43,509 nt of DNA from Candidatus Hadarchaeales archaeon (GTDB lineage: Archaea > Hadarchaeota > Hadarchaeia > Hadarchaeales > WYZ-LMO6), in NCBI GenBank assembly GCA_038851755.1, contig JAWCKR010000010.1:1-43509 (forward strand), in the 5' to 3' direction. The first letter of the stretch is position 1, and the number at the start of each line of letters is the position of its first letter. This document shows positions 4,379-43,041 of the stretch, in pieces. A model generated the notes under the pieces. The model ran no database searches and had not been told where the DNA came from. It saw only the letters and a program-made list of their open reading frames with translations. The translations under genes and the position numbers were made by a program.

Positions 4379-4475
4379 AGCGGGGTAGGGCAGCGTGGAG
4401 TGCCCGCCGGGCTCATAGGAGTTTTCCCGCGGAGAAACCCGGAGGTCGGAGGTTCAAGTCCTCCCCCCGCTACCA
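4379..4475 (+). tRNA. Initiator tRNA-Met (CAT) with a 19-nt intron at 37/38 (4418-4436) and encoded CCA
   Basis: Acceptor AGCGGGG/CCCCGCT-A-CCA with A1:U72; anticodon stem CCGGG/CCCGG with three consecutive G:C pairs; CAT at 4414-4416; T-loop GTTCAAG. Confidence 0.93.
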
Positions 4476-23977: not shown

Positions 23978-24700
23978 TTGGGACTCAGGATCGCGGCCAC
24001 GGGGGACGTTCACTCCCCCAAGTATCTGGACCTCTTCGGCGAAGCCCTGGGCAGGATGGGCAAGGTGGACCTCTTCCTGCTGGCGGGGGATCTCGTGTAC
24101 AAGAACGACCACACCCAGCTGGCTCCCCTGCTGGAAACCCTCAGGAAGTTCCACGAAGGGGAGGTCCTGGCCTGCTTCGGGAACGAGGAGTACCTGCAGG
24201 ACCGGGAGAAGTACCGGAAGCTGAAGGCCCCGCGCTGGGTGGAGGACGAGGCGGTGATAGTGGAGGTGAGGGGGACCGAGGTGGGAGTAGTGGGATCCCA
24301 GGGTTCCCTTTCCCGCCCCACCTACTGGCAGCGCACCCACCTTCCCGGCATAGCCGAGATCTACGAGGAGAGAGTGAAGCTGCTGGACCGGCTGCTCAAG
24401 GAGCTGAATACGGAGGTGAAGGTGGTCCTCACCCACTACGCCCCCACCTTCGCCACGGTGAAGGGGGAGGACCGGGAGTCCCTGCCGGAAATCGGCAACA
24501 GGAAGCTGGAGGAGGTGATAGCGAGGAGACAACCGGATCTCTGGGTCCACGCCCACGCGCACAGGGCTTCGGTCCTGGAGACCACGATGGGAAGAACGCT
24601 GGTGGTCAACGCTTCCCTCCCCGCCCGGAGGGAAATCTACGTGACCGACCTCCCCAGGAAGAGCGGCCTGGATACCTTCCTCCCGCAAGAGGTCAGGTGA
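23978..24700 (+). CDS. Calcineurin-like metallophosphoesterase
   Basis: GDVH, AGDLV, GNEE, THYAP, HAHAH. Confidence 0.88.
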   Translation: MGLRIAATGDVHSPKYLDLFGEALGRMGKVDLFLLAGDLVYKNDHTQLAPLLETLRKFHEGEVLACFGNEEYLQDREKYRKLKAPRWVEDEAVIVEVRGTEVGVVGSQGSLSRPTYWQRTHLPGIAEIYEERVKLLDRLLKELNTEVKVVLTHYAPTFATVKGEDRESLPEIGNRKLEEVIARRQPDLWVHAHAHRASVLETTMGRTLVVNASLPARREIYVTDLPRKSGLDTFLPQEVR

Positions 24701-26333
24701 GCCAGCAGAGCAGCGCTCCCCCTCCCACCGTCCCCAGGGTGAACACGAGGAGGGAGAGGGGCAGGCCAGAGGCCAGCCTGAGCCTCCTCCCCATCCCGCC
24801 CTCCCCCTCCATCTCCGAGACCAGGGAGAGGAGGAAGAAGGAGAGGACCAGCTGGTAGGACCCGAGGAGGAGAAGGAGGAGGGAGGGTGAGAGGGAGCCC
24901 GGGAAGAAACCCGCTCCCCTCTCCCAGAGGACCGCGTACATCTGGCAGGTGAGGGAGGTGATGAGGGGGGAGAAGAAGAGGGCCAGGGAACGCATGGAGG
25001 AGGAGACCTCCGCCATCTCCTCCCTTCCCCTGCGCTCCACCTCCCTCAGCCTCCTCAGGTGAGAGGAAAGCTGAAGGGCCGCCTCGCCCGCCGCCCTCTC
25101 GCCCCGCTTCGCCAGCTCCGCCAGCAGGGAAAAGGTCCCCCTCACCAGCCCCGAGGGCGTGCCTTTCCAACCCTCCGCGGGCTCCCGCCCTTCCACCCTC
25201 CCGAGGGCCTCCTCCCACGGCCTTCCCGCCCTGAGCTCGCTGCCCAGCTCCTGCAGCCTCTCCGGCAGGTCGTCCTCCAGCTCCAGCAGGCGGCGGCGCT
25301 CCTTCACCTCGAAAGAGGCGGGAAGGAGGCGGAGGGAGAGGGGGAGGACCATCGACCAGAGGAAGACCAGCACCCTCAGCTCTGGGGAGGGCAGGAGGGG
25401 GAGGCCGAGGAGGAGGGCAAGGGGGAGAAGGAAGACGGGGGAGGTCTTTCCCCTCCGGGACGGGGGCTCCGCGGGCGGGGAGACCACGGGGCGCCTGGAG
25501 AGGATCCAGGAGCTGAGGAGGTACAGGACCAGCGGGAGGAGGAAACCGTAGAGGAAGGCCAGGGGGAGGGGAGTGGAAAGGAGGCCCAAGGAGCCCAGCA
25601 CGGGAACGAGGGTGAGGACGCAGAGGGGGAGAAGGATCCCGAAGGAGTAGAGCAGGAGGAGGGGGAACCTCACCCAGCCCACGAACTCCCTCACCCTCTC
25701 CCTCACGTCCTCCAGCGAGCCCTCCAGCGCCCGCTCCACCGCCTTCCTCCTGTCCTCCTCACCCATTCTGACGGAGGCCAGGAGGAGGTGGAGGTGCTTC
25801 GAAAGTTCGGGCGGGTCCCCCCACCTCCTCGAGAAGCAACGAAGGGCCTCCCCCGCCTCCCTGTGGACCCTGAGGAAGACCCTGGAGAGCTCCTTCCCGA
25901 GCTCCGGTCCCATCCTTCCCCCCGTGTTCTCCGCGGCGAACCCTCCTGCCACCTCCGGGTTGGGGTTGAGGAGGAGGGAGGAGGAGAGGGTGCAGAGGAG
26001 CCTGGGCACCTCACCCACCCTCCTCCTTTTCTCACCCTCCGCCGCCTGGAGGGGATAACCGCTCACACCCAGGTAGACCAGGGGAGGGAGGAAGAGGAGG
26101 AGGGCGAACCTCAGGGAGAGGAGGAGGAAGGGAAGGAGGAGGAGAGAGGAGAGAAGGGAGAGGAGGAGGGCCAGCGCCCTCACCTCACCCACCTCCACCT
26201 CCCACCCCAGGAACCTCAGGCTCTCCCCCAACCTCTCGTCCTCCCCCCAGCGGGTGCCCAGCCAGCGCCCGGCCCACCTGCAGGAGCGGACGAAGAGGTT
26301 CACCTGAGGCTCTCCCTCAGCCACCTCTCCCAC
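24693..26333 (-). CDS. Type IV pilus / T2SS-F (TadB/TadC-like) membrane platform protein
   Basis: Multi-TM with two T2SSF-like cytoplasmic segments (GEVPRLLCTLSSSL..NPE; LPERLQELGSELRAGRPWEEAL); directly downstream of the ATPase. Confidence 0.78.
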   Translation of the reverse strand: MGEVAEGEPQVNLFVRSCRWAGRWLGTRWGEDERLGESLRFLGWEVEVGEVRALALLLSLLSSLLLLPFLLLSLRFALLLFLPPLVYLGVSGYPLQAAEGEKRRRVGEVPRLLCTLSSSLLLNPNPEVAGGFAAENTGGRMGPELGKELSRVFLRVHREAGEALRCFSRRWGDPPELSKHLHLLLASVRMGEEDRRKAVERALEGSLEDVRERVREFVGWVRFPLLLLYSFGILLPLCVLTLVPVLGSLGLLSTPLPLAFLYGFLLPLVLYLLSSWILSRRPVVSPPAEPPSRRGKTSPVFLLPLALLLGLPLLPSPELRVLVFLWSMVLPLSLRLLPASFEVKERRRLLELEDDLPERLQELGSELRAGRPWEEALGRVEGREPAEGWKGTPSGLVRGTFSLLAELAKRGERAAGEAALQLSSHLRRLREVERRGREEMAEVSSSMRSLALFFSPLITSLTCQMYAVLWERGAGFFPGSLSPSLLLLLLGSYQLVLSFFLLSLVSEMEGEGGMGRRLRLASGLPLSLLVFTLGTVGGGALLCWLT

Positions 26334-28444
26334 CTCTCCCTCACCCTCTCCGGTTTAGGCTCGCCGCTCCTCACCTCCTCCTCCCACAGGGAGCGGAAGC
26401 GCTGGTTGGACCGGAAAACGAACTCCGCCTCCAAGAGATCGGCCCTCCCCTCCCTCACGCTCGTCCTCACCAGCGTGGCCAGGAGGCTCTCCCTCAGCCT
26501 CCAGTGGGAGAGGAGGGCGCGGAGCCCCATCCCCCATCGCCTGGCCAAGGAGCGCAGCAGTCCTGACCCCTCCACCTCCCCGGGCACGAACCTGTCCCCC
26601 TTCACCTCGTACCTCACCAGCTCCCTGAACTCCACCTCCTCCACCTTCACCACCTCGGCAACCTGCACCACTCTCCTCCTCCTCTTCAGCCCGCCCAGGG
26701 GCCTGATGGGGGCGGAGGCCACCACCGCATCCACCGCGGCGAAGGAGGAGGGCTGCACCCCGAGGTCGTGCACCACCCTCTCGAAGACCTCCTCCGCGCT
26801 GGCCCCGTGGATGGTCCCCATCACGCAGTTCCCGGCCGCCCCCACCCTCATCGCCTCGAAGAGGGTCCTGGCCTCAGGACCCCTCACCTCGCCCACCACC
26901 AGCACGGATTCCCCCAGCCTCAGGGCGGCCCTCAGGGCCTCCTCCGCGGAGGGCTCCACCTCCGACTTCCCGAGGGGGGAGCGGGTGCGAAGGGTCTGGA
27001 CCTTGAAACCGAGAGAACGGAGGGAAGCGGCTGGAAGCTCCGGCGTGTCCTCCAGGAGGAGGATCCTGAACTTGGGGGGGAGCTCGAAGAGGAGGCTGGT
27101 GAGGAGGGAGGTCTTCCCCGAACCTCGCGTGCCCGTCAGGAGGAGGGAGGCCTGGGCGTCCACCAAAAGGCTAAGGAGGGAGGCGGTGGGAGGGTCGAGG
27201 AACCCCGCCCTCACGAACTGGGGAAGGGTCCAGGGGGAGGAGCGGTGCCTGCGGAAGGAAAAGGCCTTTCCGTCAGGGCTGAGGGGCGGGCCTATGGCCG
27301 TGACCCTCACCCCTCCCAGCTCGGCCTCCAGCACGGGATCGGCCTCCGAGAAGGGACGCCCGCTGAGGGCCCTGAGCCTGGAGACCAGCGCCTCCGCCTC
27401 CTCCTCGGAGGGGTAAACGTTGGTGAGGCACTCCTCGAAGTCCTGGTGGTAGAGGTGGAGGGGCGTCTCCCCCGGAGGAGCGTCGAGGTAGACGTCCTGC
27501 ACCCTCTCATCGGAGAGGAGGAGCTCCAGCACCCCCAGGCCCGCGGTGAACCTTGCCAGCGACTCGGACAGGCGGTCTATCTCTTCCTTCCCCACCTCCA
27601 GGCCCCTCCTCCCCACCTCCTCCGCCATCCTCCTGGCCGCCAGCCTCTGGATCCTCCCCCTCAGGAGCTCCGGTCCTCCCTCCAGGGGAGGAGGGTCCCT
27701 GCTGAGGGCCTCCCTCACCTCGTACATCAGACGCACCAGCTCCGGAGGGAGGGAGCACTCCCTGGGGAGGAGGAAATAGAGGAACTGGGAGGTGCGGGGG
27801 CAAAGGTAAATCCTCACCTCGCCGCCCCTCAGCCCGTATCTCTCCACCAGCTCCGCCCCCGGTGGAGGGTCCATCCCCAGCCTGGAGAACATGAAGGAGG
27901 GGCGGAGCCTGGGCCCCGGGAACCTGCCTCCCTGAAAGACCTCCCCGCAGATCCTCTCCAGGGCCCCCCTCATGGGACGGAGGAACCCCGTGAGGAAGGA
28001 AGAGCGGCACTCCCTGCAGCGGGCGCTCCCCCTTCCCGAGGCCACTTCCAGCTCCCTCAGGTGGCCCTCCAGCTCCTCCCTCGCCTCCAGGGGCGAGCGG
28101 GAAAGCCTGAGGGAGAGGGAGGCCAGGAGACCCCTCCTCTCCTCCTCGCACCTCCCGCATCCCCTGCAGGTCCTCATCATGGACCTGAGCTCCCAGTCCG
28201 AGAGGAGGAGGGCCAGTCTCCTCATCCCCTCCAGTTCCCTCCCGGCGTACTCCCTCTCGTAAGCCCCGGGGAACTGCACCTCCTCCACCTGGGGGCACTC
28301 GGCCAGCCCCCTCAGCAGGCCCTCCATGCACCTTCCCGAGACCCCGGGATCCGCTCCCTCCCCGCAGGAGTCGCAACCGAAGCGGAGGACCCTCCTCCTC
28401 CCGAACCTCAGGATCCCGAAGCTGCACCCTTTTCTCTCACCCAT
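26300..28444 (-). CDS. Type IV pilus assembly ATPase (VirB11/CpaF/FlaI family) with Cys-rich N-terminus
   Basis: Walker A GTRGSGKT, EDTPEL Asp box, Walker B ALRLGESVLVVGEVRGPEA, GTIHG His box. Confidence 0.92.
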   Translation of the reverse strand: MGERKGCSFGILRFGRRRVLRFGCDSCGEGADPGVSGRCMEGLLRGLAECPQVEEVQFPGAYEREYAGRELEGMRRLALLLSDWELRSMMRTCRGCGRCEEERRGLLASLSLRLSRSPLEAREELEGHLRELEVASGRGSARCRECRSSFLTGFLRPMRGALERICGEVFQGGRFPGPRLRPSFMFSRLGMDPPPGAELVERYGLRGGEVRIYLCPRTSQFLYFLLPRECSLPPELVRLMYEVREALSRDPPPLEGGPELLRGRIQRLAARRMAEEVGRRGLEVGKEEIDRLSESLARFTAGLGVLELLLSDERVQDVYLDAPPGETPLHLYHQDFEECLTNVYPSEEEAEALVSRLRALSGRPFSEADPVLEAELGGVRVTAIGPPLSPDGKAFSFRRHRSSPWTLPQFVRAGFLDPPTASLLSLLVDAQASLLLTGTRGSGKTSLLTSLLFELPPKFRILLLEDTPELPAASLRSLGFKVQTLRTRSPLGKSEVEPSAEEALRAALRLGESVLVVGEVRGPEARTLFEAMRVGAAGNCVMGTIHGASAEEVFERVVHDLGVQPSSFAAVDAVVASAPIRPLGGLKRRRRVVQVAEVVKVEEVEFRELVRYEVKGDRFVPGEVEGSGLLRSLARRWGMGLRALLSHWRLRESLLATLVRTSVREGRADLLEAEFVFRSNQRFRSLWEEEVRSGEPKPERVRERWERWLRESLR

Positions 28445-28610
28445 CCCTCTCCCCCCGCGCGGGGAGGCGGAGCTGGTCCTCCAGCAGTTCGACCCTCTTC
28501 TCCAGGTATTCCAGGCGCTGCTCCAGCACCCTGAAGTCGTTCAGCAGGTGGGAGATCCACCTACCGTGCTCCGCCAGCACGGAGAGCTCCCTCTTCCTTC
28601 CGAACCTCAC
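28437..28610 (-). CDS. 57-aa coiled-coil hypothetical protein
   Basis: My translation: MRFGRKRELSVLAEHGRWISHLLNDFRVLEQRLEYLEKRVELLEDQLRLPARGERDG*; its stop overlaps the ATPase start. Confidence 0.6.
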   Translation of the reverse strand: MRFGRKRELSVLAEHGRWISHLLNDFRVLEQRLEYLEKRVELLEDQLRLPARGERDG

Positions 28611-29121
28611 CTATTCCCCCCCTCGCCCTGAACTCGGAGAAGAGGCGCAGGACGCGGAGCAGGACCTCCCTCACCTCCTCCCTCTCCATCTCCCGCGGGC
28701 CGCAGGGGGAGGACAGGAGGAGGGCCCAGGTGGTCTCCCTTATCGCACCCTCCTCCCTCATCTCATCGGCCAGCGCCTTCAGGTCCAGGGTAGGATGCCT
28801 CCCCGCACGCCCCTCCAGCAGCTCCCCGAGGGCCGAGAGTTCCTCCTTCAGCCTCTGGAACTCGTAATCCGACACCCTCCTCCATTCCCCACGCAGAGGG
28901 GTGTCCGACCTGCAGCCCGAGTAGGAATCCCTGAGCCTGGAGCTGAGCTCCTCCACCCTGAGCAGGAGGTGGCCCACCTCGGGATCCGAGGAGAGGGGGG
29001 GCCGGAGCTTCAGCCACAGCAGCAGCCTGCGCACTCCCTCCAGGAAGCCGGTGGAACACCTCTTCTCCGCCGTCAGCATCCCCAGCTCCCTGAGGAGCTC
29101 CTCTTCACTCCCCGGCCCCAT
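28561..29121 (-). CDS. Hypothetical helical protein in the pilus operon
   Basis: 186-aa ORF with host-like codon usage, in operon position. Confidence 0.6.
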   Translation of the reverse strand: MGPGSEEELLRELGMLTAEKRCSTGFLEGVRRLLLWLKLRPPLSSDPEVGHLLLRVEELSSRLRDSYSGCRSDTPLRGEWRRVSDYEFQRLKEELSALGELLEGRAGRHPTLDLKALADEMREEGAIRETTWALLLSSPCGPREMEREEVREVLLRVLRLFSEFRARGGIGEVRKEEGALRAGGAR

Positions 29122-29269
29122 TCCGCCCCTCCAGAGCCCTGCGCAGGTCCTCCTCCGCCCTCCTGAGGGCCTGCACCAGGTTGCCCCTTCTGTCCGCCGA
29201 CCTCACCCTCCACCACAGGAGGAGGTACCATGACCCCGCCAGCGAGAGCAGGAGGAGGAGAGGGCCCAT
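29105..29269 (-). CDS. 54-aa single-TM hypothetical protein, first gene of the pilus operon
   Basis: My translation: MGPLLLLLSLAGSWYLLLWWRVRSADRRGNLVQALRRAEEDLRRALEGRNGAGE*; minus-strand TTTTAA at 29294-29299. Confidence 0.6.
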   Translation of the reverse strand: MGPLLLLLSLAGSWYLLLWWRVRSADRRGNLVQALRRAEEDLRRALEGRNGAGE

Positions 29270-29308
29270 CGGGCGGTCTGGGGAGGGTCGGCCTTAAAAG
29301 GGGAGAAC

Positions 29309-30631
29309 TCAGCGGCGGAGCCTGAGGGCCAGGACCAGGACCAGCGCCAGCGCCCCCACCAGGAGCAGGAGGAGCTGGAGGGAGGGAAGAGAGGGACCCT
29401 GCGCGGGCTGGAGGACCACGGTGAGGAGAAGCGTGCCCTCCGAGGAAACCTGCCCGTAGGGGCTCCGGGCCTCCACCTCCGCCTCCACGGGCGAGTTCTC
29501 CACCCCCTTCAGGGGCTCGAGGTAGAAGATCAGGTCCGTGCTCCTGCCCGGGGCCAGCTCCTCCACGCTCTGCGGAGGGACGGGACGGAAGGAGCTCTCG
29601 TCCACCCCCAACCGAACGGTGAGGTCCTCCAGGGTGCTCCTGCCCCTGTTCCTCACGCTGACCACCACGCCCACCTTCCCGTTCTCCTGGCCACCCTTTC
29701 CCACCGTCACCTCGGCCGCGGCCTCCCTGCAGAGGAGGAGGGTCTTATCCAACCTCGTCACCTTGCTCCACCTCTCGCCCGGGATGCTCACCTCTCCGTC
29801 CCTCACCAGGTTGGAGCCGTCGCTGGAGAAGAGGAGGAGGTGGTCCTCGTTCAGCTCCCCGAACTGTCCCCCCATCCAGGTCTCGTCCACCGGCACCCAC
29901 CCCACTCCTGGGAGGTAGAGGGCGACGAAGGCGTGGCCCATCCTCTCGGCGTTGTCCCCGAACTGGGGATTGTAGCCGTATCCCGCCAGGAACTTGGCGG
30001 GAAGGCCGGAGAGCCTGGCCAGGGCGATGAAGAGGTTGGTGAAATCCGTGCACTTGCCCACCCTGCTGCGGTAGACCTCCAGGGCGCTCTGGTTCCAGTC
30101 AAGGATCCGATAGTCCACATGATCCTTGACGAACTCGAAAATGTTCCTGGCGGTCAGGTAGGGGGTCTCCCCCTTCAGCTCCTCCGCCTTCTCCCTCAGC
30201 TCCGGCGCGTTCTCCCAGAGGTTGGGCACGGGCTCGGTGAGCCGCAGGAGCTCCTGCGGGATCTCTCCCCTCCCCTCGAGGTTCTCCCACCTCCTCCCGC
30301 TCACCCTGAGGATCTGCGTGAGGCTGACCTCCCCGGACCTCCCGGGCAGGAGCTTGCCCAGGGAGAACCTGAGGACCCTGTTGTCCTCCCCCCTGGACTC
30401 CTGAGGGGGAAGGGAGAAGCTCTCCTCCAGCACCGTCTGGAAGTCCCACCCGAAGTGCTCGTTGTCGAAGGCGAAGATTTCCAGCCAGCCCTCCACCTCC
30501 GACGGACCCGTGTTGGTGAGCGTGTAGGTGGCCCGGAAGCTGTAGATGGAGGAGCCGGCCGAGGAGGGAGGGAGGAGGGAGAGGAAGAGGAGGAGGGAAA
30601 GAAGGACCAGGAGAACGTGAGACCTGTTCAT
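29309..30631 (-). CDS. Cell-surface transglutaminase-like cysteine protease-fold protein
   Basis: Signal peptide; triad GKCTDF / HAFVALY / WVPVDET; CARDB-like Ig segment; C-terminal TM plus RLRR; start at ATG 30631 after GGAGG. Confidence 0.88.
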   Translation of the reverse strand: MNRSHVLLVLLSLLLFLSLLPPSSAGSSIYSFRATYTLTNTGPSEVEGWLEIFAFDNEHFGWDFQTVLEESFSLPPQESRGEDNRVLRFSLGKLLPGRSGEVSLTQILRVSGRRWENLEGRGEIPQELLRLTEPVPNLWENAPELREKAEELKGETPYLTARNIFEFVKDHVDYRILDWNQSALEVYRSRVGKCTDFTNLFIALARLSGLPAKFLAGYGYNPQFGDNAERMGHAFVALYLPGVGWVPVDETWMGGQFGELNEDHLLLFSSDGSNLVRDGEVSIPGERWSKVTRLDKTLLLCREAAAEVTVGKGGQENGKVGVVVSVRNRGRSTLEDLTVRLGVDESSFRPVPPQSVEELAPGRSTDLIFYLEPLKGVENSPVEAEVEARSPYGQVSSEGTLLLTVVLQPAQGPSLPSLQLLLLLVGALALVLVLALRLRR

Positions 30632-30653: not shown

Positions 30654-30664
30654 CTTATAAAAAG
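30654..30664. promoter_or_regulatory. Putative bidirectional TATA box
   Basis: CTTATAAAAAG in the middle of a 53-bp divergent intergenic region, roughly 20-25 bp from both ATGs. Confidence 0.55.
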
Positions 30665-30684: not shown

Positions 30685-31311
30685 ATGAGGACGAGGGTGC
30701 TGATCCTGGCCTGCGCGGTCCTGGGCCTGGTGATGACCTGCGCTGGGCTCCACTCCTCCGGGCCCAAACGACTGGAGGTCCGGGACCTGACCGGGGAGAG
30801 GGTGGGAACGCAGGTCCTCCTCTCCGGCAGGGTGATGGACCTGAGCGAGCATCCCGAGGGGCACCTCTTCCTGAGGGTGGGCGAGGACAACCGCACCGTC
30901 TCCGTCCCCCTCTTCTCGAGCGTGAGGAGCGGGATGGGGACTGCGGTGGAGCTGCTGGACTGGGTGGAGGTGAGGGGGAAGGTCCGGGAGTGGAAGGGGG
31001 AGCTGGAGGTGGTCCCGAGCAGGCCGGAGGATGTGAGGGTGAGGAGGGAACCTCCCCGCAGGGTGGGGGAGATAGGAGAGGGTGAGGTGGGAAGGCTGGT
31101 GAAGGTGGAGGGAGAGGTGAGGAGGGTGGCGAGGCTGGGCGAGAACTGCCTCCTCCTGACGCTGGCGGAGAACGGGTCCGAGCTGAGGGTCTTCCTCCCC
31201 TTCCAGGTCCAGGTGAGGACGGGCTCCAGGGTGGTGGCGGCGGGGAGGGTGCAGCTCTACCGGGGGGAGCTGGAGCTGGCGGTGAAGAGGGCCTCCCACC
31301 TGCGCCTCTAG
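30685..31311 (+). CDS. Membrane-anchored tandem OB-fold nucleic-acid-binding protein
   Basis: N-terminal TM; two repeats V.L.G.V...V.V.G.V..(W/Y).GELE (VRGKVREWKGELEV and AAGRVQLYRGELEL). Confidence 0.8.
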   Translation: MRTRVLILACAVLGLVMTCAGLHSSGPKRLEVRDLTGERVGTQVLLSGRVMDLSEHPEGHLFLRVGEDNRTVSVPLFSSVRSGMGTAVELLDWVEVRGKVREWKGELEVVPSRPEDVRVRREPPRRVGEIGEGEVGRLVKVEGEVRRVARLGENCLLLTLAENGSELRVFLPFQVQVRTGSRVVAAGRVQLYRGELELAVKRASHLRL

Positions 31312-31312
31312 C

Positions 31313-32506
31313 ATGGAGCTCCTCCTCTGCTTCCTGCTCGGGGCGGGGCTGGGCACCTTCGCCGGGCTCATCCCCGGCGTGCACGTGAACAACCTCACCC
31401 CGCTGGTCCCCGCACTGGTGGTCTCCGCCGGTCTCTCACCCCTGGGAGGGGCGGCCGCCATCGTGACCATGGCGGTGGTCCAGACCTTCACCAGCTACAT
31501 CCCCTCGACCTTCCTGGGGGTCCCGGAGGAGGGCACCGCCCTCTCCGTCCTCCCCACCCACAGGATGGTGCTGGAGGGGAGAGGACCGGTGGCCCTGAGG
31601 CTCACGACCAGCGGCTGCCTCTGGGGTCTCTTCCTGGGCTCCCTCCTGGCCCTTCCCCTGGCGGCGGTCTTCGGGGGGATTTACGGGCTCCTGCGACCCG
31701 CCATGGGCTGGATCCTCCTGGCGGTGGTCGCCCTCATGATCCTCTCGGAGGGGAGCCCGCGCCGGATGGCCTGGTCCCTCCTGGTCTTCCTCCTCTCCGG
31801 CGCGCTGGGCCTGCTCACGCTGGACCTGGGAGGGGAAGTGCTCATGCCCCTCCTGAGCGGTCTCTTCGGGATGAGCGTGGTGCTGGAGAGCCTGGCCTCC
31901 AGGGAGAGGCTGCCCGAGCAGAGGGAGGAGGAAGGGGAGCCCCCGGTGTCCCTTCCTCCCCTCCTCTCCGGGGTGGGGGCGGGGGTCTTCACGGGCTTCC
32001 TCCCAGGGATAGGGCCGGCGGAGGGGACCGTGCTCTCCCAGCTCGTCACCCGCACCAGGCGGACGGAGGACTTCCTCCTCTCGGTGAGCGGGGTGAACAT
32101 GGTGAAGGTGCTCTTCTCCTTCGTGGCCCTCCACGCCATAGGCAGGCCCAGGAGCGGCGCGGCGGTGGCGGTGGGGGAGCTGCTGGAGGTGGGGAGGGGG
32201 GAGCTCCTCTTCCTGGTGGGAGTGGCGCTGCTGGCGGGGGCCCTCTCCTCCCTGCTGGTGCCCGCCCTGGCCAGGCTGGTGTGCTCGGGCCTCCCCAGGC
32301 TACCCTACAGGGCCCTGGGTCTCTCCACCCTCCTCCTCATCCTCTCCCTGACCCTCCTCCTCTGCGGCCCCGCGGGGCTTCCGCTCCTCATCACGGCCAC
32401 GGCCATCGGCCTCCTCCCGGGAAGGGTGGGGGTGAGGAGGTCGCACGGGATGGGGGTGATCCTCCTCCCCTGCACCCTCTACTTCCTGGGCCTCAGGAGC
32501 CTGTGA
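31313..32506 (+). CDS. Archaeal TctA-family (tripartite tricarboxylate transporter-like) permease
   Basis: GTFAGLIPGVHVN, SYIPSTFLGVP, LPTHRMVLEGRG, PLLSGLFG, GFLPGIG, RSG; many TM helices. Confidence 0.85.
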   Translation: MELLLCFLLGAGLGTFAGLIPGVHVNNLTPLVPALVVSAGLSPLGGAAAIVTMAVVQTFTSYIPSTFLGVPEEGTALSVLPTHRMVLEGRGPVALRLTTSGCLWGLFLGSLLALPLAAVFGGIYGLLRPAMGWILLAVVALMILSEGSPRRMAWSLLVFLLSGALGLLTLDLGGEVLMPLLSGLFGMSVVLESLASRERLPEQREEEGEPPVSLPPLLSGVGAGVFTGFLPGIGPAEGTVLSQLVTRTRRTEDFLLSVSGVNMVKVLFSFVALHAIGRPRSGAAVAVGELLEVGRGELLFLVGVALLAGALSSLLVPALARLVCSGLPRLPYRALGLSTLLLILSLTLLLCGPAGLPLLITATAIGLLPGRVGVRRSHGMGVILLPCTLYFLGLRSL

Positions 32507-32814
32507 GAGAGAAGGGGGAGGAGGACGGCGAGGAGGAAGAGGAGGAGGGCAAGGACCAGGAAGAGCGTCCTGGTCGTCCCCGAGAAGTCCTTCTCCCCCC
32601 TGTGGAGGAGGAGGGAGACTCCGAGCCCCAGCAGGGCGGGGGAGGAGGCGTGGAGGAGGTGGTCCGCCAGCAGAAAACCCGAGAGGAGGAGGGCCGCCCC
32701 CAGGCAGAGGAGGGAGAGGTCGGCGAAGGAGGAGGGGGAGGGCGTGGAGGCCTCCAGCAGGAGGAGGGAGCCCAGGAAGGCCGAGAAGAGGGCCAGCGGG
32801 CACCTGGGGGACAC
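32479..32814 (-). CDS. Small 4-TM hypothetical membrane protein
   Basis: 111-aa hydrophobic ORF filling the gap between tctA and dph6. Confidence 0.5.
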   Translation of the reverse strand: MSPRCPLALFSAFLGSLLLLEASTPSPSSFADLSLLCLGAALLLSGFLLADHLLHASSPALLGLGVSLLLHRGEKDFSGTTRTLFLVLALLLFLLAVLLPLLSHRLLRPRK

Positions 32815-39310: not shown

Positions 39311-41200
39311 ATGTCAAAAAGGAGAACGGGGGGGAAACCGGGAAAGGTGCGCGAGAAGGCGGGGGGGGAAGTGGAGAAGCTCGAGGGCATCCCGCATCCG
39401 GGCGTGCACGAGTTCGTCTCCCAGGCGGTGGAGCTCTGCCAGCCGGCGAGGATCTTCGTCTGCGACGACTCCCCGGAGGACCTGGCCCACATCAGGCGCA
39501 TGGCGCTGGAGAGCGGGGAGGAGGGGCCCCTCTCCATCCCCGGCCACACCTACCACTTCGACGGCTACTTCGACCAGGGGAGGGACAGGCAGGCCACCAG
39601 GTTCCTGGTGCCCAAGGGGGAGCACCTGAGCCCGCGCCTGAACCAAGTGGAGAGGGAGGAGGGCCTCTCCGAGGTCCTGGAACTGCTGAGGGGCTCCATG
39701 AGGGGGAGGACCATGATCGTGCGCTTCCTCACCCTAGGCCCTAGGGACTCCCCCTTCACCATCCCCTGCATGGAGTGCACGGACTCCTGGTACGTGGCCC
39801 ACTCCGTCAGCCTCCTCTACCGCCGGGGCTACGACACCTTCCTGAAGCTCGACCCGAGGGCGGAGCTCTTCAAGACCCTGCACTCCTCCGGGAAGGTCGA
39901 CGAGCGGATGATAAGCGTGGAGCACGAGAAGAAGAGGATCTACATCGACTACGTCACCAACACCGTCTACAGCGTGAACACCCAGTACGCGGGGAACTCG
40001 GTGGGGTTCAAGAAGCTGGCCCTCAGGCTGGCCATCAGGAAGGCCCACAGGGAGGGCTGGCTGGCCGAGCACTTCATGATCATAGGGGTGAGGGGGCCCG
40101 GCGGGAGGAAGACCTACCTGGCCGGGGCCTTCCCCAGCGCCTGCGGGAAGACCTCCACCGCCATGCTCCCCGGGGAGACCATCCTGGCGGACGACATAGC
40201 CTACGTCAGGAACCTGGGGGGGGTCTGCAGGGCCGTGAACATCGAGGCCGGGATCCTGGGCATCCTGCAGGACGTGAACCCCCAGAGCGACCCCCTCATC
40301 TACCAGGTCCTCACCAGCCCGGGGGAGATCATCTTCTCCAACGTGCTGGTGAAGGACGGGAGGCCGTACTGGCTGGGGATGGGGTGCGAGCTGCCCAAGG
40401 AGGGCATCAACTTCTGCGGGGAGTGGAGGGAGGGGATGGGAGGGCCCAACGGGAAGCCCGTTCCCCCCGCCCACCCGAACGCCAGGTACACCGTGAGCCT
40501 CTCCGCCCTCCCCAACTGCGACCCCGAGCTGGAGAACCCCCAGGGGGTGGAGCTGGGGGGGATCATGTTCGGGGGGAGGGACTACAGGGCCTACGTCCCG
40601 GTGCAGCAGGGCTTCAGCTGGGAGCACGGCATCGTCCTGTACGGGGCGGGCCTGGAGACGGAGACCACCTTCGCCATCATGGAGGAGCCCAAGTTCGAGA
40701 TCAACGTGATGAGCCTGCAGGACTTCCTCTCCATTCCGCTGGGGGAGTACGTAAGGAACTGCCTGGAGTTCGGGAGGAAACTGAAGAGAGCACCGCTGGT
40801 CTTCGGGGTGAACTACTTCCTGCGCCACCCGAGGACGGGGGAGTACCTGAACCACAGGCTGGACAAGCACGTGTGGGTGAAGTGGATGGAGAGGAGGGTG
40901 CACGGGGAGATGGGCGCGCTGGTCTCCCCCACCGGCCTCATCCCCACCTACGAGGACCTGGTGGAACTCTTCAGGGAGGTGCGGGGGAGGGAATACACGA
41001 GGGAGGAGTACGTGCAGCAGTTCTCCGTCAGGGTGAAGTGGCTCCTGAAGAAGGTGGGGAGGGTGGAGGAGTTCTGGAGGAAGGAACAGGGCACGCCGGA
41101 GGAGGTCTTCAGGGTGCTGGGGGAGACCCGCGAGAGGCTGGAGGAGCTCAGGAAGAGGTTCGGGGACCCGGTATCCCCTGAGAAGCTCGAGGAGGAGTGA
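39311..41200 (+). CDS. pckG: Phosphoenolpyruvate carboxykinase (GTP)
   Basis: GSMRGRTM, QYAGNSVG.KK.ALR, EGWLAEH, AFPSACGKTSTAM, HPNARYT, VNYF; the start could be 39296. Confidence 0.96.
   Translation: MSKRRTGGKPGKVREKAGGEVEKLEGIPHPGVHEFVSQAVELCQPARIFVCDDSPEDLAHIRRMALESGEEGPLSIPGHTYHFDGYFDQGRDRQATRFLVPKGEHLSPRLNQVEREEGLSEVLELLRGSMRGRTMIVRFLTLGPRDSPFTIPCMECTDSWYVAHSVSLLYRRGYDTFLKLDPRAELFKTLHSSGKVDERMISVEHEKKRIYIDYVTNTVYSVNTQYAGNSVGFKKLALRLAIRKAHREGWLAEHFMIIGVRGPGGRKTYLAGAFPSACGKTSTAMLPGETILADDIAYVRNLGGVCRAVNIEAGILGILQDVNPQSDPLIYQVLTSPGEIIFSNVLVKDGRPYWLGMGCELPKEGINFCGEWREGMGGPNGKPVPPAHPNARYTVSLSALPNCDPELENPQGVELGGIMFGGRDYRAYVPVQQGFSWEHGIVLYGAGLETETTFAIMEEPKFEINVMSLQDFLSIPLGEYVRNCLEFGRKLKRAPLVFGVNYFLRHPRTGEYLNHRLDKHVWVKWMERRVHGEMGALVSPTGLIPTYEDLVELFREVRGREYTREEYVQQFSVRVKWLLKKVGRVEEFWRKEQGTPEEVFRVLGETRERLEELRKRFGDPVSPEKLEEE
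40993..41103 (+). repeat. Direct repeat copy 1 (inside the pckG 3' end)
   Basis: 111 bp identical by eye to 43399-43509. Confidence 0.95.
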
Positions 41201-41341
41201 ACCTTATCCCTCGTGGATATGGCATCTGTACTTCTCATAGAATAGAATTTGTGAGAAGTTAAACTGCCAAAAAATAAGGATGTCCTGTTGGAGCTGGACC
41301 CTTCGCGGAGGGGGCGTTCTTGGTGCCTTAAAAGACTACGG

Positions 41342-41444
41342 GTGACCCCCCAAGAGGAAAGGACCCAGGATAGGGGACAAAACCGTCTCGATGGTGCCGG
41401 CCTTCAAGTTCCTGCTCGGCTTGGGTAAATTTTTGGCCTCGTGA
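41342..41444 (+). pseudogene. Possible C-terminal remnant of a COG1373/DUF4143-type ATPase
   Basis: Two frames read VTPQEERT and RIGDKTVSMVPAFKFLL, resembling that family's C-terminus; recognition by eye only. Confidence 0.3.
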
Positions 41445-41496
41445 GACCAAGGGCGGCCGGCCATACGGGTGGGGGATGGCCGAGATCGGCTTTGAG

Positions 41497-41532
41497 TTAA
41501 CCAAACTTATAAATAATTATAAGTTCGGTTAA
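41497..41532. promoter_or_regulatory. Palindromic operator overlapping the TATA box of the AbiE operon
   Basis: TTAACCAAACTTATAA-ataa-TTATAAGTTCGGTTAA (15/16 inverted repeat), 8 bp before the ATG at 41541. Confidence 0.8.
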
Positions 41533-41540
41533 TTGATAAG

Positions 41541-42203
41541 ATGAGGGACATCACAAGGCCCAAAAGGATCCCCCTGCACATGAAAATCAAGAGGGCACGC
41601 CACAGAGAGATCGCGATGGCACAGGATGTGGCTGTGGAGGCGTTCTATCACGTGTTCCCTCGCGGCGTCCTGCACGGTGGCACGGCGATATGGCGCTGCT
41701 ATTCGGGGAACCGGTTCTCGGAGGATGTCGACGTCTACATCCAAAGAGACCTGAAGAAGATCGACGCCTTCTTCGAAGCCCTGAAAAAACGCGGTTTTGA
41801 GGTGACCAAGAAAAGGGTGAAGGAAAACGCCCTGTATTCGGCCCTGAAATTCGGCGGGGTGGAGATAGGCTTCGAGGCGATTTTCAAGCGCGCTAAAGGT
41901 GTATTGAGAGAATACGAAACTTACGAGGGCAACTTGTTGAGCGTCTACACCCTGGACCCTGAAACCCTAATAGAGGAGAAAGTCGACGCCTACCTGAAGA
42001 GGAGGAGGATCAGGGATCTGTACGATGTGTTCTATCTCCTGAGGTTTGTGAAAAAGGCTGAAGCCGTGAAACCGAAACTCTTGAAGCTCCTCCAGAACTT
42101 CAAGGAGCCCGTCGACGAGAAAGAGCTCAAGGTCCTGCTGCTTTTCGGAGCAATCCCTGACAAAAAGGGGATGCTCGAGTACATTGAAGGGTGGGCGAGA
42201 TGA
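41541..42203 (+). CDS. AbiEii/AbiGii-family nucleotidyltransferase toxin (type IV TA)
   Basis: LHGGTAIWRCYSGNRFSEDVD, EKVDAY..RRRIRDLYD. Confidence 0.9.
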   Translation: MRDITRPKRIPLHMKIKRARHREIAMAQDVAVEAFYHVFPRGVLHGGTAIWRCYSGNRFSEDVDVYIQRDLKKIDAFFEALKKRGFEVTKKRVKENALYSALKFGGVEIGFEAIFKRAKGVLREYETYEGNLLSVYTLDPETLIEEKVDAYLKRRRIRDLYDVFYLLRFVKKAEAVKPKLLKLLQNFKEPVDEKELKVLLLFGAIPDKKGMLEYIEGWAR

Positions 42204-42772
42204 GCGGCCGCCTCGTGAGCAGGGTGAGGGAGTTCCTCCGGAGCACGCCGGTGGCGAACCTGCAGTCGATTTCGGCCCTGGTCGGCAGCAAAAACTACGC
42301 CTGCGTGGTGATGAATCACCTTTTGAAGAGGGGCGAGGTGAGGAGGATAACACGGGGGTACTACACCATCCACGACGACCCCTCCCTGCTGGTGTACTGT
42401 CTGAAGCCGGCGTACATCGGACTGCAGGACGCGATGAGCCTCCACAACCTGTGGGAGCAGGAAACTTCCCCGATAATAATCACGAGCAGAAGGGTGAGGT
42501 CCGGCGTCAGGAAGGTCATGGGGCACAACGTGCTGGTGAGGAGGATTTCCAGAAAGTACTTCTTCGGTTACGAGCATCACAGGCACGGCGATTTTTACCT
42601 GCCCGTGAGCGATGTGGAAAAGACGCTCCTGGACATGATCTATTTCGGAGAGCTGGGGAAATCCGTGGTGGGAAAATTCAAGCCCAGAATCGACCGCAAA
42701 AAACTCGATGAATATTTGGAGAAGTATCCTTCAAAATTTAGGAAGAAAGTGTCGAACCTACTGTTCTCGTGA
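42200..42772 (+). CDS. AbiEi-family antitoxin/transcriptional regulator
   Basis: wHTH LLKRGEVRRITRGYY; PAYIGLQDAMSLHNL; YFFGY; VSDVEKTLLD; ATGA overlap with the toxin gene. Confidence 0.87.
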   Translation: MSGRLVSRVREFLRSTPVANLQSISALVGSKNYACVVMNHLLKRGEVRRITRGYYTIHDDPSLLVYCLKPAYIGLQDAMSLHNLWEQETSPIIITSRRVRSGVRKVMGHNVLVRRISRKYFFGYEHHRHGDFYLPVSDVEKTLLDMIYFGELGKSVVGKFKPRIDRKKLDEYLEKYPSKFRKKVSNLLFS

Positions 42773-42882
42773 CCCGAGTTCACCTTTTAGACCGAGACCG
42801 TGGAGCACTACTGAGCATCCCTCTCGGGCTGGACTGGGGGGACTTGGACATCCCCTGACGGGACCACAACCATCTCAAACAT

Positions 42883-43041
42883 CTAGGCGAACCCATCGTT
42901 TCCCGAATCCACTTTCCTGCCTCCCGGAGCCTGCGGTGGAGGAGGTGGCGGTGGCACAATTGGCAAAATCTTAGACTCACTTCCCTTCCAAAAGATGGCG
43001 GAAACTATATTCGTGTCCGCCACAACCGACGCAGGCTTCAT
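42883..43041 (-). pseudogene. Truncated PIN-domain (VapC-like) toxin remnant
   Basis: MKPASVVADTNIVSAIFWKGSESKIL matches a PIN N-terminus (V.DTN..vSA...G), then loses similarity and stops early. Confidence 0.6.

Follow-up and report, generated by a model that had tools for sequence, protein, structure and literature searches.

Two adjacent forward-strand genes of a Hadarchaeota archaeon, encoding a membrane-anchored protein with two oligonucleotide/oligosaccharide-binding (OB) folds and a TctA-like permease, form a real, conserved operon, the Hadarchaeota tandem-OB version of an archaeal OB-fold/TctA-like module. Here, we report the analysis of this pair within a 43,509-nucleotide (nt) stretch of DNA (the window) from Candidatus Hadarchaeales archaeon (GenBank assembly GCA_038851755.1, contig JAWCKR010000010.1, positions 1 to 43,509). 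By homology with Methanococcus, where the role of the module in DNA uptake is genetically established and mechanistically unexplained, the pair most likely acts in extracellular nucleic acid uptake as the Hadarchaeota form of the module, a reading that we favor with reasonable confidence. For the passage of DNA across the membrane during archaeal natural transformation, the Methanococcus OB-fold/TctA-like pair provides the only genetic candidates. In substance, the idea of DNA uptake is the hypothesis set out in 2023 in the consulted part of PMC10133366, here carried over to a further phylum; what is new is the coupling throughout Hadarchaeota, the distribution counts, and the prediction of a complex formed through the helix.

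Gene pair and encoded proteins

The OB gene ends with TAG at 31309-31311, followed by a single C and the permease ATG at 31313, and the permease gene ends with TGA at 32504-32506; the 1-bp spacing is that given in the original prediction, which was made from the letters of the window. GC content at third codon positions was 0.93 (OB gene) and 0.94 (permease gene), with codon-position GC as expected of real genes. The TATA-like box TTATAAAAAG lies inside a 53-nt divergent intergenic region, about 22 to 31 nt upstream of the OB ATG, which suggests that transcription is leaderless or near-leaderless. At 30 of the 32 Hadarchaeota loci measured, the first permease start codon stood −8 to +4 nt from the OB stop (the exceptions were L060, at +300 nt, and L051, whose open reading frame [ORF] is probably over-extended by the first-start-codon rule), and translational coupling is therefore indicated.

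The 208-amino-acid (aa) OB protein was matched by Pfam to PF01336 (OB-fold; E, 9.3e-11; 42 bits, cut-off 27; two stretches) and PF13742 (E, 4.7e-8; 33.6 bits, cut-off 27). Its AlphaFold2 (AF2) model (27-sequence alignment; pLDDT, 92.8) consists of an N-terminal helix and two five-stranded barrels, as anticipated by the original description of one transmembrane segment and two OB repeats, and the motifs named in that description were recovered one per fold (VREWKGELE in OB fold 1, VQLYRGELE in OB fold 2). Profile scores above the gathering score and the OB-barrel structure together place the protein among nucleic-acid-binding OB folds. OB fold 1 carries a helix (residues 78-84) between strands 3 and 4; residues F62, P75, F77, D92, and G98 in this fold and G180 and G187 in OB fold 2 were invariant across the 27 aligned sequences. 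With the OB model as query, Foldseek gave 219 matches at E ≤1e-3, topped by tandem-OB DNA binders (best, Teb1 AB [3u58; E, 1.2e-8; TMq, 0.43]; also the p204 HIN-dsDNA complex, RPA filaments, and POT1), although such likeness of a modeled fold does not prove binding. Sequence searches of solved structures returned weak OB matches only (AspRS OB, 0.0031; STN1; “putative nucleic acid-binding lipoprotein” 3f1z, 0.015), and the only NCBIfam match was a subthreshold one to XseA (30 bits versus a cut-off of 180).

The N terminus of the OB protein reads MRTR and carries a net charge of +2 ahead of the helix, which fits an N-in/C-out anchor; by the positive-inside rule, the protein should therefore be a signal anchor with its OB folds predicted outside the cell, the placement assumed in the original prediction. 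The ectodomain in the window is basic (net charge, +4; isoelectric point [pI], 9.7), a property found only in its own genus and a few others.

Downstream, the 397-aa protein matched PF01970 (TctA) with an E value of 7.7e-49 (166.9 bits, cut-off 28.9), residues 4-380 aligning to positions 1-422 of the 423 in the Pfam model, which bears out its naming as a TctA permease. Its AF2 model was entirely helical (pLDDT, 86.3). VIA-align placed OPT-family YS1 nearest (7wsr; Z, 12.1; 263 residues aligned; root mean square deviation, 4.8), followed by LaINDY (7.2), TRAP IseQM (6.4), VcINDY (6.2), YdaH (6.2), SiaQM (5.8/5.7), and ArsB (5.5), with Z values below about 13 being possibly generic for helical proteins. 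Foldseek gave no match for this model at E ≤1e-3, no NCBIfam family matched at E ≤0.1, and a sequence search of solved structures returned nothing relevant (best E, 0.085, to Kelch proteins). The permease contains an internal repeat, as in its comparison with the Methanococcus-type permease of locus L164 the C-terminal half of one of the two aligned with the N-terminal half of the other (second BLAST segment; E, 7e-5), and the repeat includes two G-x-x-P-G-I motifs. A length of about 400 aa, end-to-end similarity to euryarchaeal proteins, and neighbors free of TctB and TctC are those of the archaeal type (arCOG04469/COG1784), a typing based on length, similarity, and neighbors. In the consulted part of PMC5898192 (Makarova, Galperin, and Koonin, 2015), arCOG04469/COG1784/pfam01970 is treated as a euryarchaeal TctA family that is mostly “stand-alone.” The database names of homologues, “tripartite tricarboxylate transporter permease” (NCBI) and “DNA/RNA endonuclease YhcR,” are flagged here as misleading.

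The genome containing the window (1.25 Mb; 93.04% complete) has one PF01970 gene and no match to TctC (PF03401) or TctB (PF07331) at E ≤1, which extends to the genome the absence of these subunits first noted for the operon. It also gave no match to the ComEC competence domain (PF03772) at E ≤0.01, and none to PF04307 (YdjM/DUF457), sought as a third partner. A linked nuclease was considered and rejected, the genome having one weak SNase match, on another contig, and none of 118 neighboring genes in other archaea being an SNase.

Conservation and relation to the natural transformation module

An OB homologue stood directly upstream of the TctA-like gene at 30 of 30 further Hadarchaeota loci from the PF01970 search and in three close relatives from a contig scan, and this adjacency is far beyond chance. 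Identity to the window OB protein was 26 to 42% at 29 loci from other genera, 76% at a locus of the same genus (L055), and 71 to 79% in the close relatives; at the same 29 loci, the TctA-like proteins were 41 to 56% identical. PF01970 was found in 54 of 66 Hadarchaeota genomes (23 of the 26 of high quality), and a hidden Markov model of the Hadarchaeota OB proteins (the OB profile) likewise matched 54 of the 66.

The known module was described by Fonseca et al. in 2023 (PMC10133366), who screened transposon mutants of Methanococcus maripaludis JJ. As reported in the consulted part of that paper, MMJJ_13020 (OB-fold; single transmembrane segment) adjoins MMJJ_13030 (TctA-like; 11 transmembrane segments), and in-frame deletion of either gene abolished natural transformation and was complemented in trans. 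According to the same text, deletion of the TctA-like gene of Methanoculleus thermophilus also abolished transformation, BLASTp gave no clear OB homologue in that species, pili are essential for archaeal transformation, and the TctA-like protein is proposed as the archaeal DNA transporter, with proof still needed. The lack of a clear OB homologue in M. thermophilus fits the patchy linkage counted below. In the literature library searched, no later work developing the proposal of a TctA-like DNA transporter was found, the matches being the 2023 paper, its preprint, and one selenium-omics paper.

The window pair has the architecture of this module (a single N-terminal helix plus OB, with an adjacent TctA-like gene). 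Like the M. maripaludis pair, it consists of adjacent same-strand genes with the OB gene first, encoding an N-terminal helix with a predicted extracellular OB part and a TctA-like permease of archaeal type (about 400 aa) that is an orphan, with neither TctB nor TctC; unlike that pair, it belongs to an uncultured Hadarchaeota archaeon without known competence. Homology was measured against a Methanococcus-type pair (genome G284, locus L164), in which a 201-aa OB protein with a single transmembrane segment is encoded 98 nt upstream of a 400-aa TctA-like protein. The L164 OB protein is identical to a “hypothetical protein [Methanococcus aeolicus]” in the protein collection, and a search with it returned names from M. 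aeolicus, Methanothermococcus, and Methanotorris and none from M. maripaludis. It aligned with the Hadarchaeota OB profile (hhalign probability, 95.5%; E, 1.4e-8; 119 columns), and the window and L164 permeases were colinear end to end (27% identity; E, 2e-33; 397 versus 400 aa). These alignments show homology of the window pair to a pair of the Methanococcus type with like architecture, orthology to MMJJ_13020/13030 proper being putative. The L164 pair differs in its spacing (98 nt, versus 1 nt in the window) and in that its OB protein has a single OB fold followed by a Cys-rich segment at the C terminus, where the window protein has two OB folds. This segment (C-x-several-C ... C-x2-C; L164:3472-4077, minus strand) follows the single OB fold at the place of the second Hadarchaeota OB fold and had no Pfam match at E ≤5.

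In a sample of 235 archaeal genomes from outside Hadarchaeota, 109 contained a match to the OB profile at E ≤1e-6 and 174 a match to PF01970 at E ≤1e-10. Neighborhoods were compared at 60 loci from 59 of these genomes (about one per genus; TctA-like gene ±2.5 kb), chosen among the better-scoring listed matches and hence biased toward clear TctA. An OB-profile match (E ≤1e-3) lay within 2.5 kb at 16 of the 60 loci from other genera; at 15 it was upstream and codirectional, and at 1 it was divergent. When the 118 nearest neighbors of the 60 TctA-like genes were searched against Pfam, short OB-fold proteins, present at 12 loci, were the commonest coherent partner; there was no TctB, TctC, SNase, or T2SSE ATPase and a single YdjM (L113), and the remainder were housekeeping genes, e.g., for DNA polymerase subunits, NrdD, and TtuA. 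At L121, L128, and L149, the nearest neighbor was all or part of TiaS (tRNA agmatidine synthetase); three TiaS with a PF01336 OB fold were not counted as membrane OB partners, for which these cytoplasmic tRNA enzymes could be mistaken.

Linkage is strong in some lineages and absent in others. In a contig scan of loci L004-L030, nearly all from Marine Group II, a multi-OB ORF stood just upstream of the TctA-like gene in 23 of 27 (E ≤0.002); one further locus matched the OB profile at E 0.026, and two of the three misses were on short contigs. The clusters of Marine Group II and other archaea (L005-L030) resemble the window pair in having a membrane-anchored OB protein immediately upstream of the TctA-like gene. 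L008 differs in a larger OB protein (522 aa, starting with a membrane helix and carrying several repeats that resemble OB folds), a larger permease (551 aa, with an insert), and a third protein thereafter (917 aa); the window holds the minimal two-gene form. Against 1.84 billion representative proteins, the OB profile gave 3706 matches at E ≤1e-3, of which 106 reached E ≤1e-30. Many were 300 to 1000 aa long with 2 to 9 matched stretches, indicating that the family is large and that its members differ in how many OB repeats they carry. The module thus occurs in different sizes across archaeal lineages, with one, two, or many OB folds.

Two further arrangements were observed. In one genus with genomes of 1.8 to 2.1 Mb, a second TctA-like copy lies behind an ORF of 711 to 997 aa with at least three OB-profile matches, a many-OB form. 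At L087 (195-3902), the TctA-like gene is preceded, at a distance of 106 nt, by the gene for a 390-aa secreted protein with SNase and lamin-tail domains (LTD), and about 680 nt downstream, on the same strand, an OB protein of 148 aa is encoded; this was the sole nuclease-linked case among the loci examined.

Predicted complex and competing explanations

The OB protein and the permease were predicted to interact with an ipSAE of 0.65 (0.64, 0.68, and 0.65 in three runs), compared with 0.00 for the best of three controls. Of 157 solved complexes, 116 attained the ipSAE mark used, as did 2 of 215 mismatched pairs; this calibration is only rough, with our own alignments having been used. At least 96% of contacts were common to the runs, the partners had pLDDT values of at least 77, and the interface joined OB residues 2-25 to permease residues 44, 96-110, 209-212, and 294-314. 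The model supports, without demonstrating it, a stable membrane complex of two subunits. Its placement of the helix on the permease suggests a concrete subunit architecture, with the OB helix as the counterpart of a small membrane subunit and the OB folds at work on the outer side.

In the working that we propose, one transcript, driven by the TATA box ahead of the OB gene, would carry both genes, whose translation would be coupled. The 208-aa product would insert with its N terminus inside, its helix packing on the permease and its two OB folds hanging outside. The permease, with its internal two-fold repeat, would adopt a shortened version of the TctA-family secondary-transporter fold and would work without TctB or TctC. 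The OB ectodomain may capture or guide DNA, possibly after nuclease processing and pilus retraction, and the TctA-like protein would form or gate the route across the membrane. In this scheme, we infer the orientation, the formation of a physical complex, the binding of DNA, and the transport of DNA or its fragments. A more specific proposal, which we hold only tentatively, is that the two proteins constitute a two-part derivative of a tripartite transporter (the helix standing in for TctB and the OB folds for TctC) that carries DNA or long oligonucleotides across the archaeal membrane independently of ComEC. If true, gene content would predict DNA uptake in most Hadarchaeota (both genes, 54/66) and in many other uncultured archaea (OB profile, 109/235; PF01970, 174/235).

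The window permease resembles that of bacterial TctABC (tripartite tricarboxylate transporter family) in matching PF01970 over the whole model length. It differs in that the genome lacks TctB/TctC matches, that the partner is a single-helix OB protein predicted by the complex model to occupy the membrane-subunit position, and that bacterial-type TctA ORFs in the phylum of genome G066 are 499 to 545 aa long, versus 397 aa here. ComEA/ComEC may share a logic with the pair, in which a membrane-tethered, outward DNA-binding protein stands beside a polytopic protein needed for DNA entry. The ComEA tether domain is a helix-hairpin-helix, whereas the window tether consists of OB folds; there is no homology between the two systems and no PF03772 match, and, unlike ComEC, the permease has a secondary-transporter-like modeled fold and no nuclease domain. 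The pair is at most a functional analogue of ComEC. The original prediction of a nucleic acid cargo and a ComEA/ComEC analogue agrees with the M. maripaludis genetics reported in the consulted part of PMC10133366, but the idea was already published, and the role of the OB protein as receptor is one that we still only infer. The Ced system of Crenarchaeota, as presented in the consulted part of PMC9905601, is an archaeal DNA import route without ComEC; it is related to bacterial conjugation machinery, and no Ced genes were seen here, where none were searched for.

Several points weigh against nucleic acid uptake by the pair. To our knowledge, DNA binding by the OB protein and DNA passage via the TctA-like protein have been shown for no member of the module, and we know of no observation of competence in Hadarchaeota, a phylum that is uncultured. 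The permease looks, as modeled, like a secondary transporter and not a channel, with no obvious DNA channel, and the transporters nearest to the model have small solutes as cargo. The membrane helix, and not the OB domains, provided the only confident contact in the complex model. The ectodomain is acidic (pI, 4.4 to 5.9) in 19 of 27 aligned Hadarchaeota OB proteins, a charge at odds with simple electrostatic binding of DNA. No OB-profile match lay near the TctA-like gene at 44 of the 60 loci from other archaeal genera or at 27 of 30 loci (3 of 30 with one) in the phylum of G066, where PF01970 occurs in 120 of 151 genomes. The permease identity to the Methanococcus-type protein is low and the OB match to the Hadarchaeota profile covers the transmembrane helix and OB fold 1 only, the comparison being with the L164 pair and not with the sequences of MMJJ_13020/13030. 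DNA transport by the TctA-like protein is also a hypothesis in the authors' own terms (PMC10133366, consulted part).

The strongest alternative, which we regard as unlikely while giving it real weight, is a secondary transporter for a small solute with the OB protein as an extracytoplasmic binding or anchoring subunit replacing TctB/TctC. Its cargo might be a carboxylate or might consist of nucleotides or short oligonucleotides that nucleases set free, and any role in transformation would be indirect or confined to the scavenging of nucleic acid breakdown products as food. Membership in PF01970 is clear, the modeled fold is nearest to OPT, DASS/INDY, TRAP-M, AbgT, and ArsB-type transporters, and the repeat with its two G-x-x-P-G-I motifs would fit the two re-entrant hairpins of elevator-type carriers. 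The ectodomains are acidic in most of the family, and salvage would presumably be useful to an organism with so small a genome (1.25 Mb). The consulted part of PMC5898192 files arCOG04469 as a probable carboxylate transporter, a guess. However, plasmid transformation of M. maripaludis needs both genes (PMC10133366, consulted part), which nucleotide import alone does not explain; the partner belongs to nucleic-acid-binding OB families of Pfam and has DNA binders as its nearest structures, and the genome yielded no binding protein of the carboxylate type.

It is improbable that the pair is an envelope or pilus accessory, needed for a surface structure such as a type IV filament and affecting DNA uptake only through it. 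The requirement for pili in archaeal transformation (PMC10133366, consulted part) would accord with this, as would the divergent arrangement, in the window genus, of the pair and genes for a T2SSE-family ATPase, a 546-aa polytopic protein, and a transglutaminase/CARDB protein. However, this ATPase cluster (24693-30631) adjoins the pair only in the same genus, at three loci (L001, L002, and L101) of the 14 Hadarchaeota loci with long flanks, and the remaining 11 lack it; among the 118 nearest neighbors in other archaea there is no T2SSE ATPase. The genome has about six T2SSE loci, so that lying close to one counts for little.

A canonical tripartite tricarboxylate transporter with TctB/TctC encoded elsewhere and the OB gene as an unrelated neighbor, favored by the Pfam family name and the NCBI name of homologues, is largely refuted and very improbable, given no PF03401/PF07331 match at E ≤1 in a 93%-complete genome, a permease about 100 residues below bacterial-type TctA ORFs (499 to 545 aa; phylum of G066), an OB gene translationally coupled to the permease and kept with it across the phylum, and a complex model that passes its controls.

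Neighboring genes and other observations

Features of the window, together with the many-OB loci found in other genomes, are collected in Table 1.

Table 1. Coordinates of the gene pair, its parts, and other features
Feature	Coordinates	Strand	Basis or remark
TATA-like box TTATAAAAAG	30654..30663	+	Read from sequence; putative promoter
OB gene, 208 aa	30685..31311	+	ORF, codon-position GC, Pfam, AF2
N-terminal transmembrane helix (residues 2-24)	30688..30756	+	AF2; complex-model interface residues 2-25
OB fold 1 (residues 43-120)	30811..31044	+	AF2 strands; Pfam stretch 44-111
OB fold 2 (residues 138-199)	31096..31281	+	AF2 strands; second Pfam stretch
TctA-like permease gene, 397 aa, arCOG04469/COG1784 type	31313..32506	+	PF01970; AF2
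111-aa ORF, 3-4 hydrophobic segments	32479-32814	-	GC at third codon positions, 0.95
Transglutaminase-core + CARDB surface protein	29309-30631	-	Pfam; divergent from pair
Small ORFs	29105-29269, 28561-29121	-	Divergent block
T2SSE-family ATPase, 714 aa	26300-28444	-	Divergent block
Polytopic membrane protein, 546 aa	24693-26333	-	Overlaps ATPase ORF
Many-OB form loci	G223:C1:1575765-1578940; G351:C2:184745-187695; G446:C1:1837957-1842086

The 546-aa polytopic protein of the divergent block had no Pfam match even at E ≤5; that it is a filament platform protein is a guess. Downstream of the pair, the genes for a diphthamide synthase and a protein of the histone deacetylase family show wide synteny and seem unrelated to it.

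The 111-aa ORF is convergent with the TctA-like gene, overlaps its 3′ end by 28 nt, and is kept in the genus (54 to 85% identity). Pfam gave no TctB match for it at E ≤5; it is possibly an unrecognized small membrane gene. In another Hadarchaeota family (L093, L096, L097, and L098), a four-helix membrane ORF of 122 to 124 aa occupies the same convergent position, with marginal similarity to the 111-aa ORF (E, 0.038).

At positions 41001-43000 of the window, GC content falls to 0.54 to 0.55 versus about 0.65 elsewhere, and no Rfam family was found in this interval. At 4379-4472 on the forward strand, Rfam identified a tRNA (51.1 bits; 94 nt) that was not called by ARAGORN and is probably an intron-containing archaeal tRNA.

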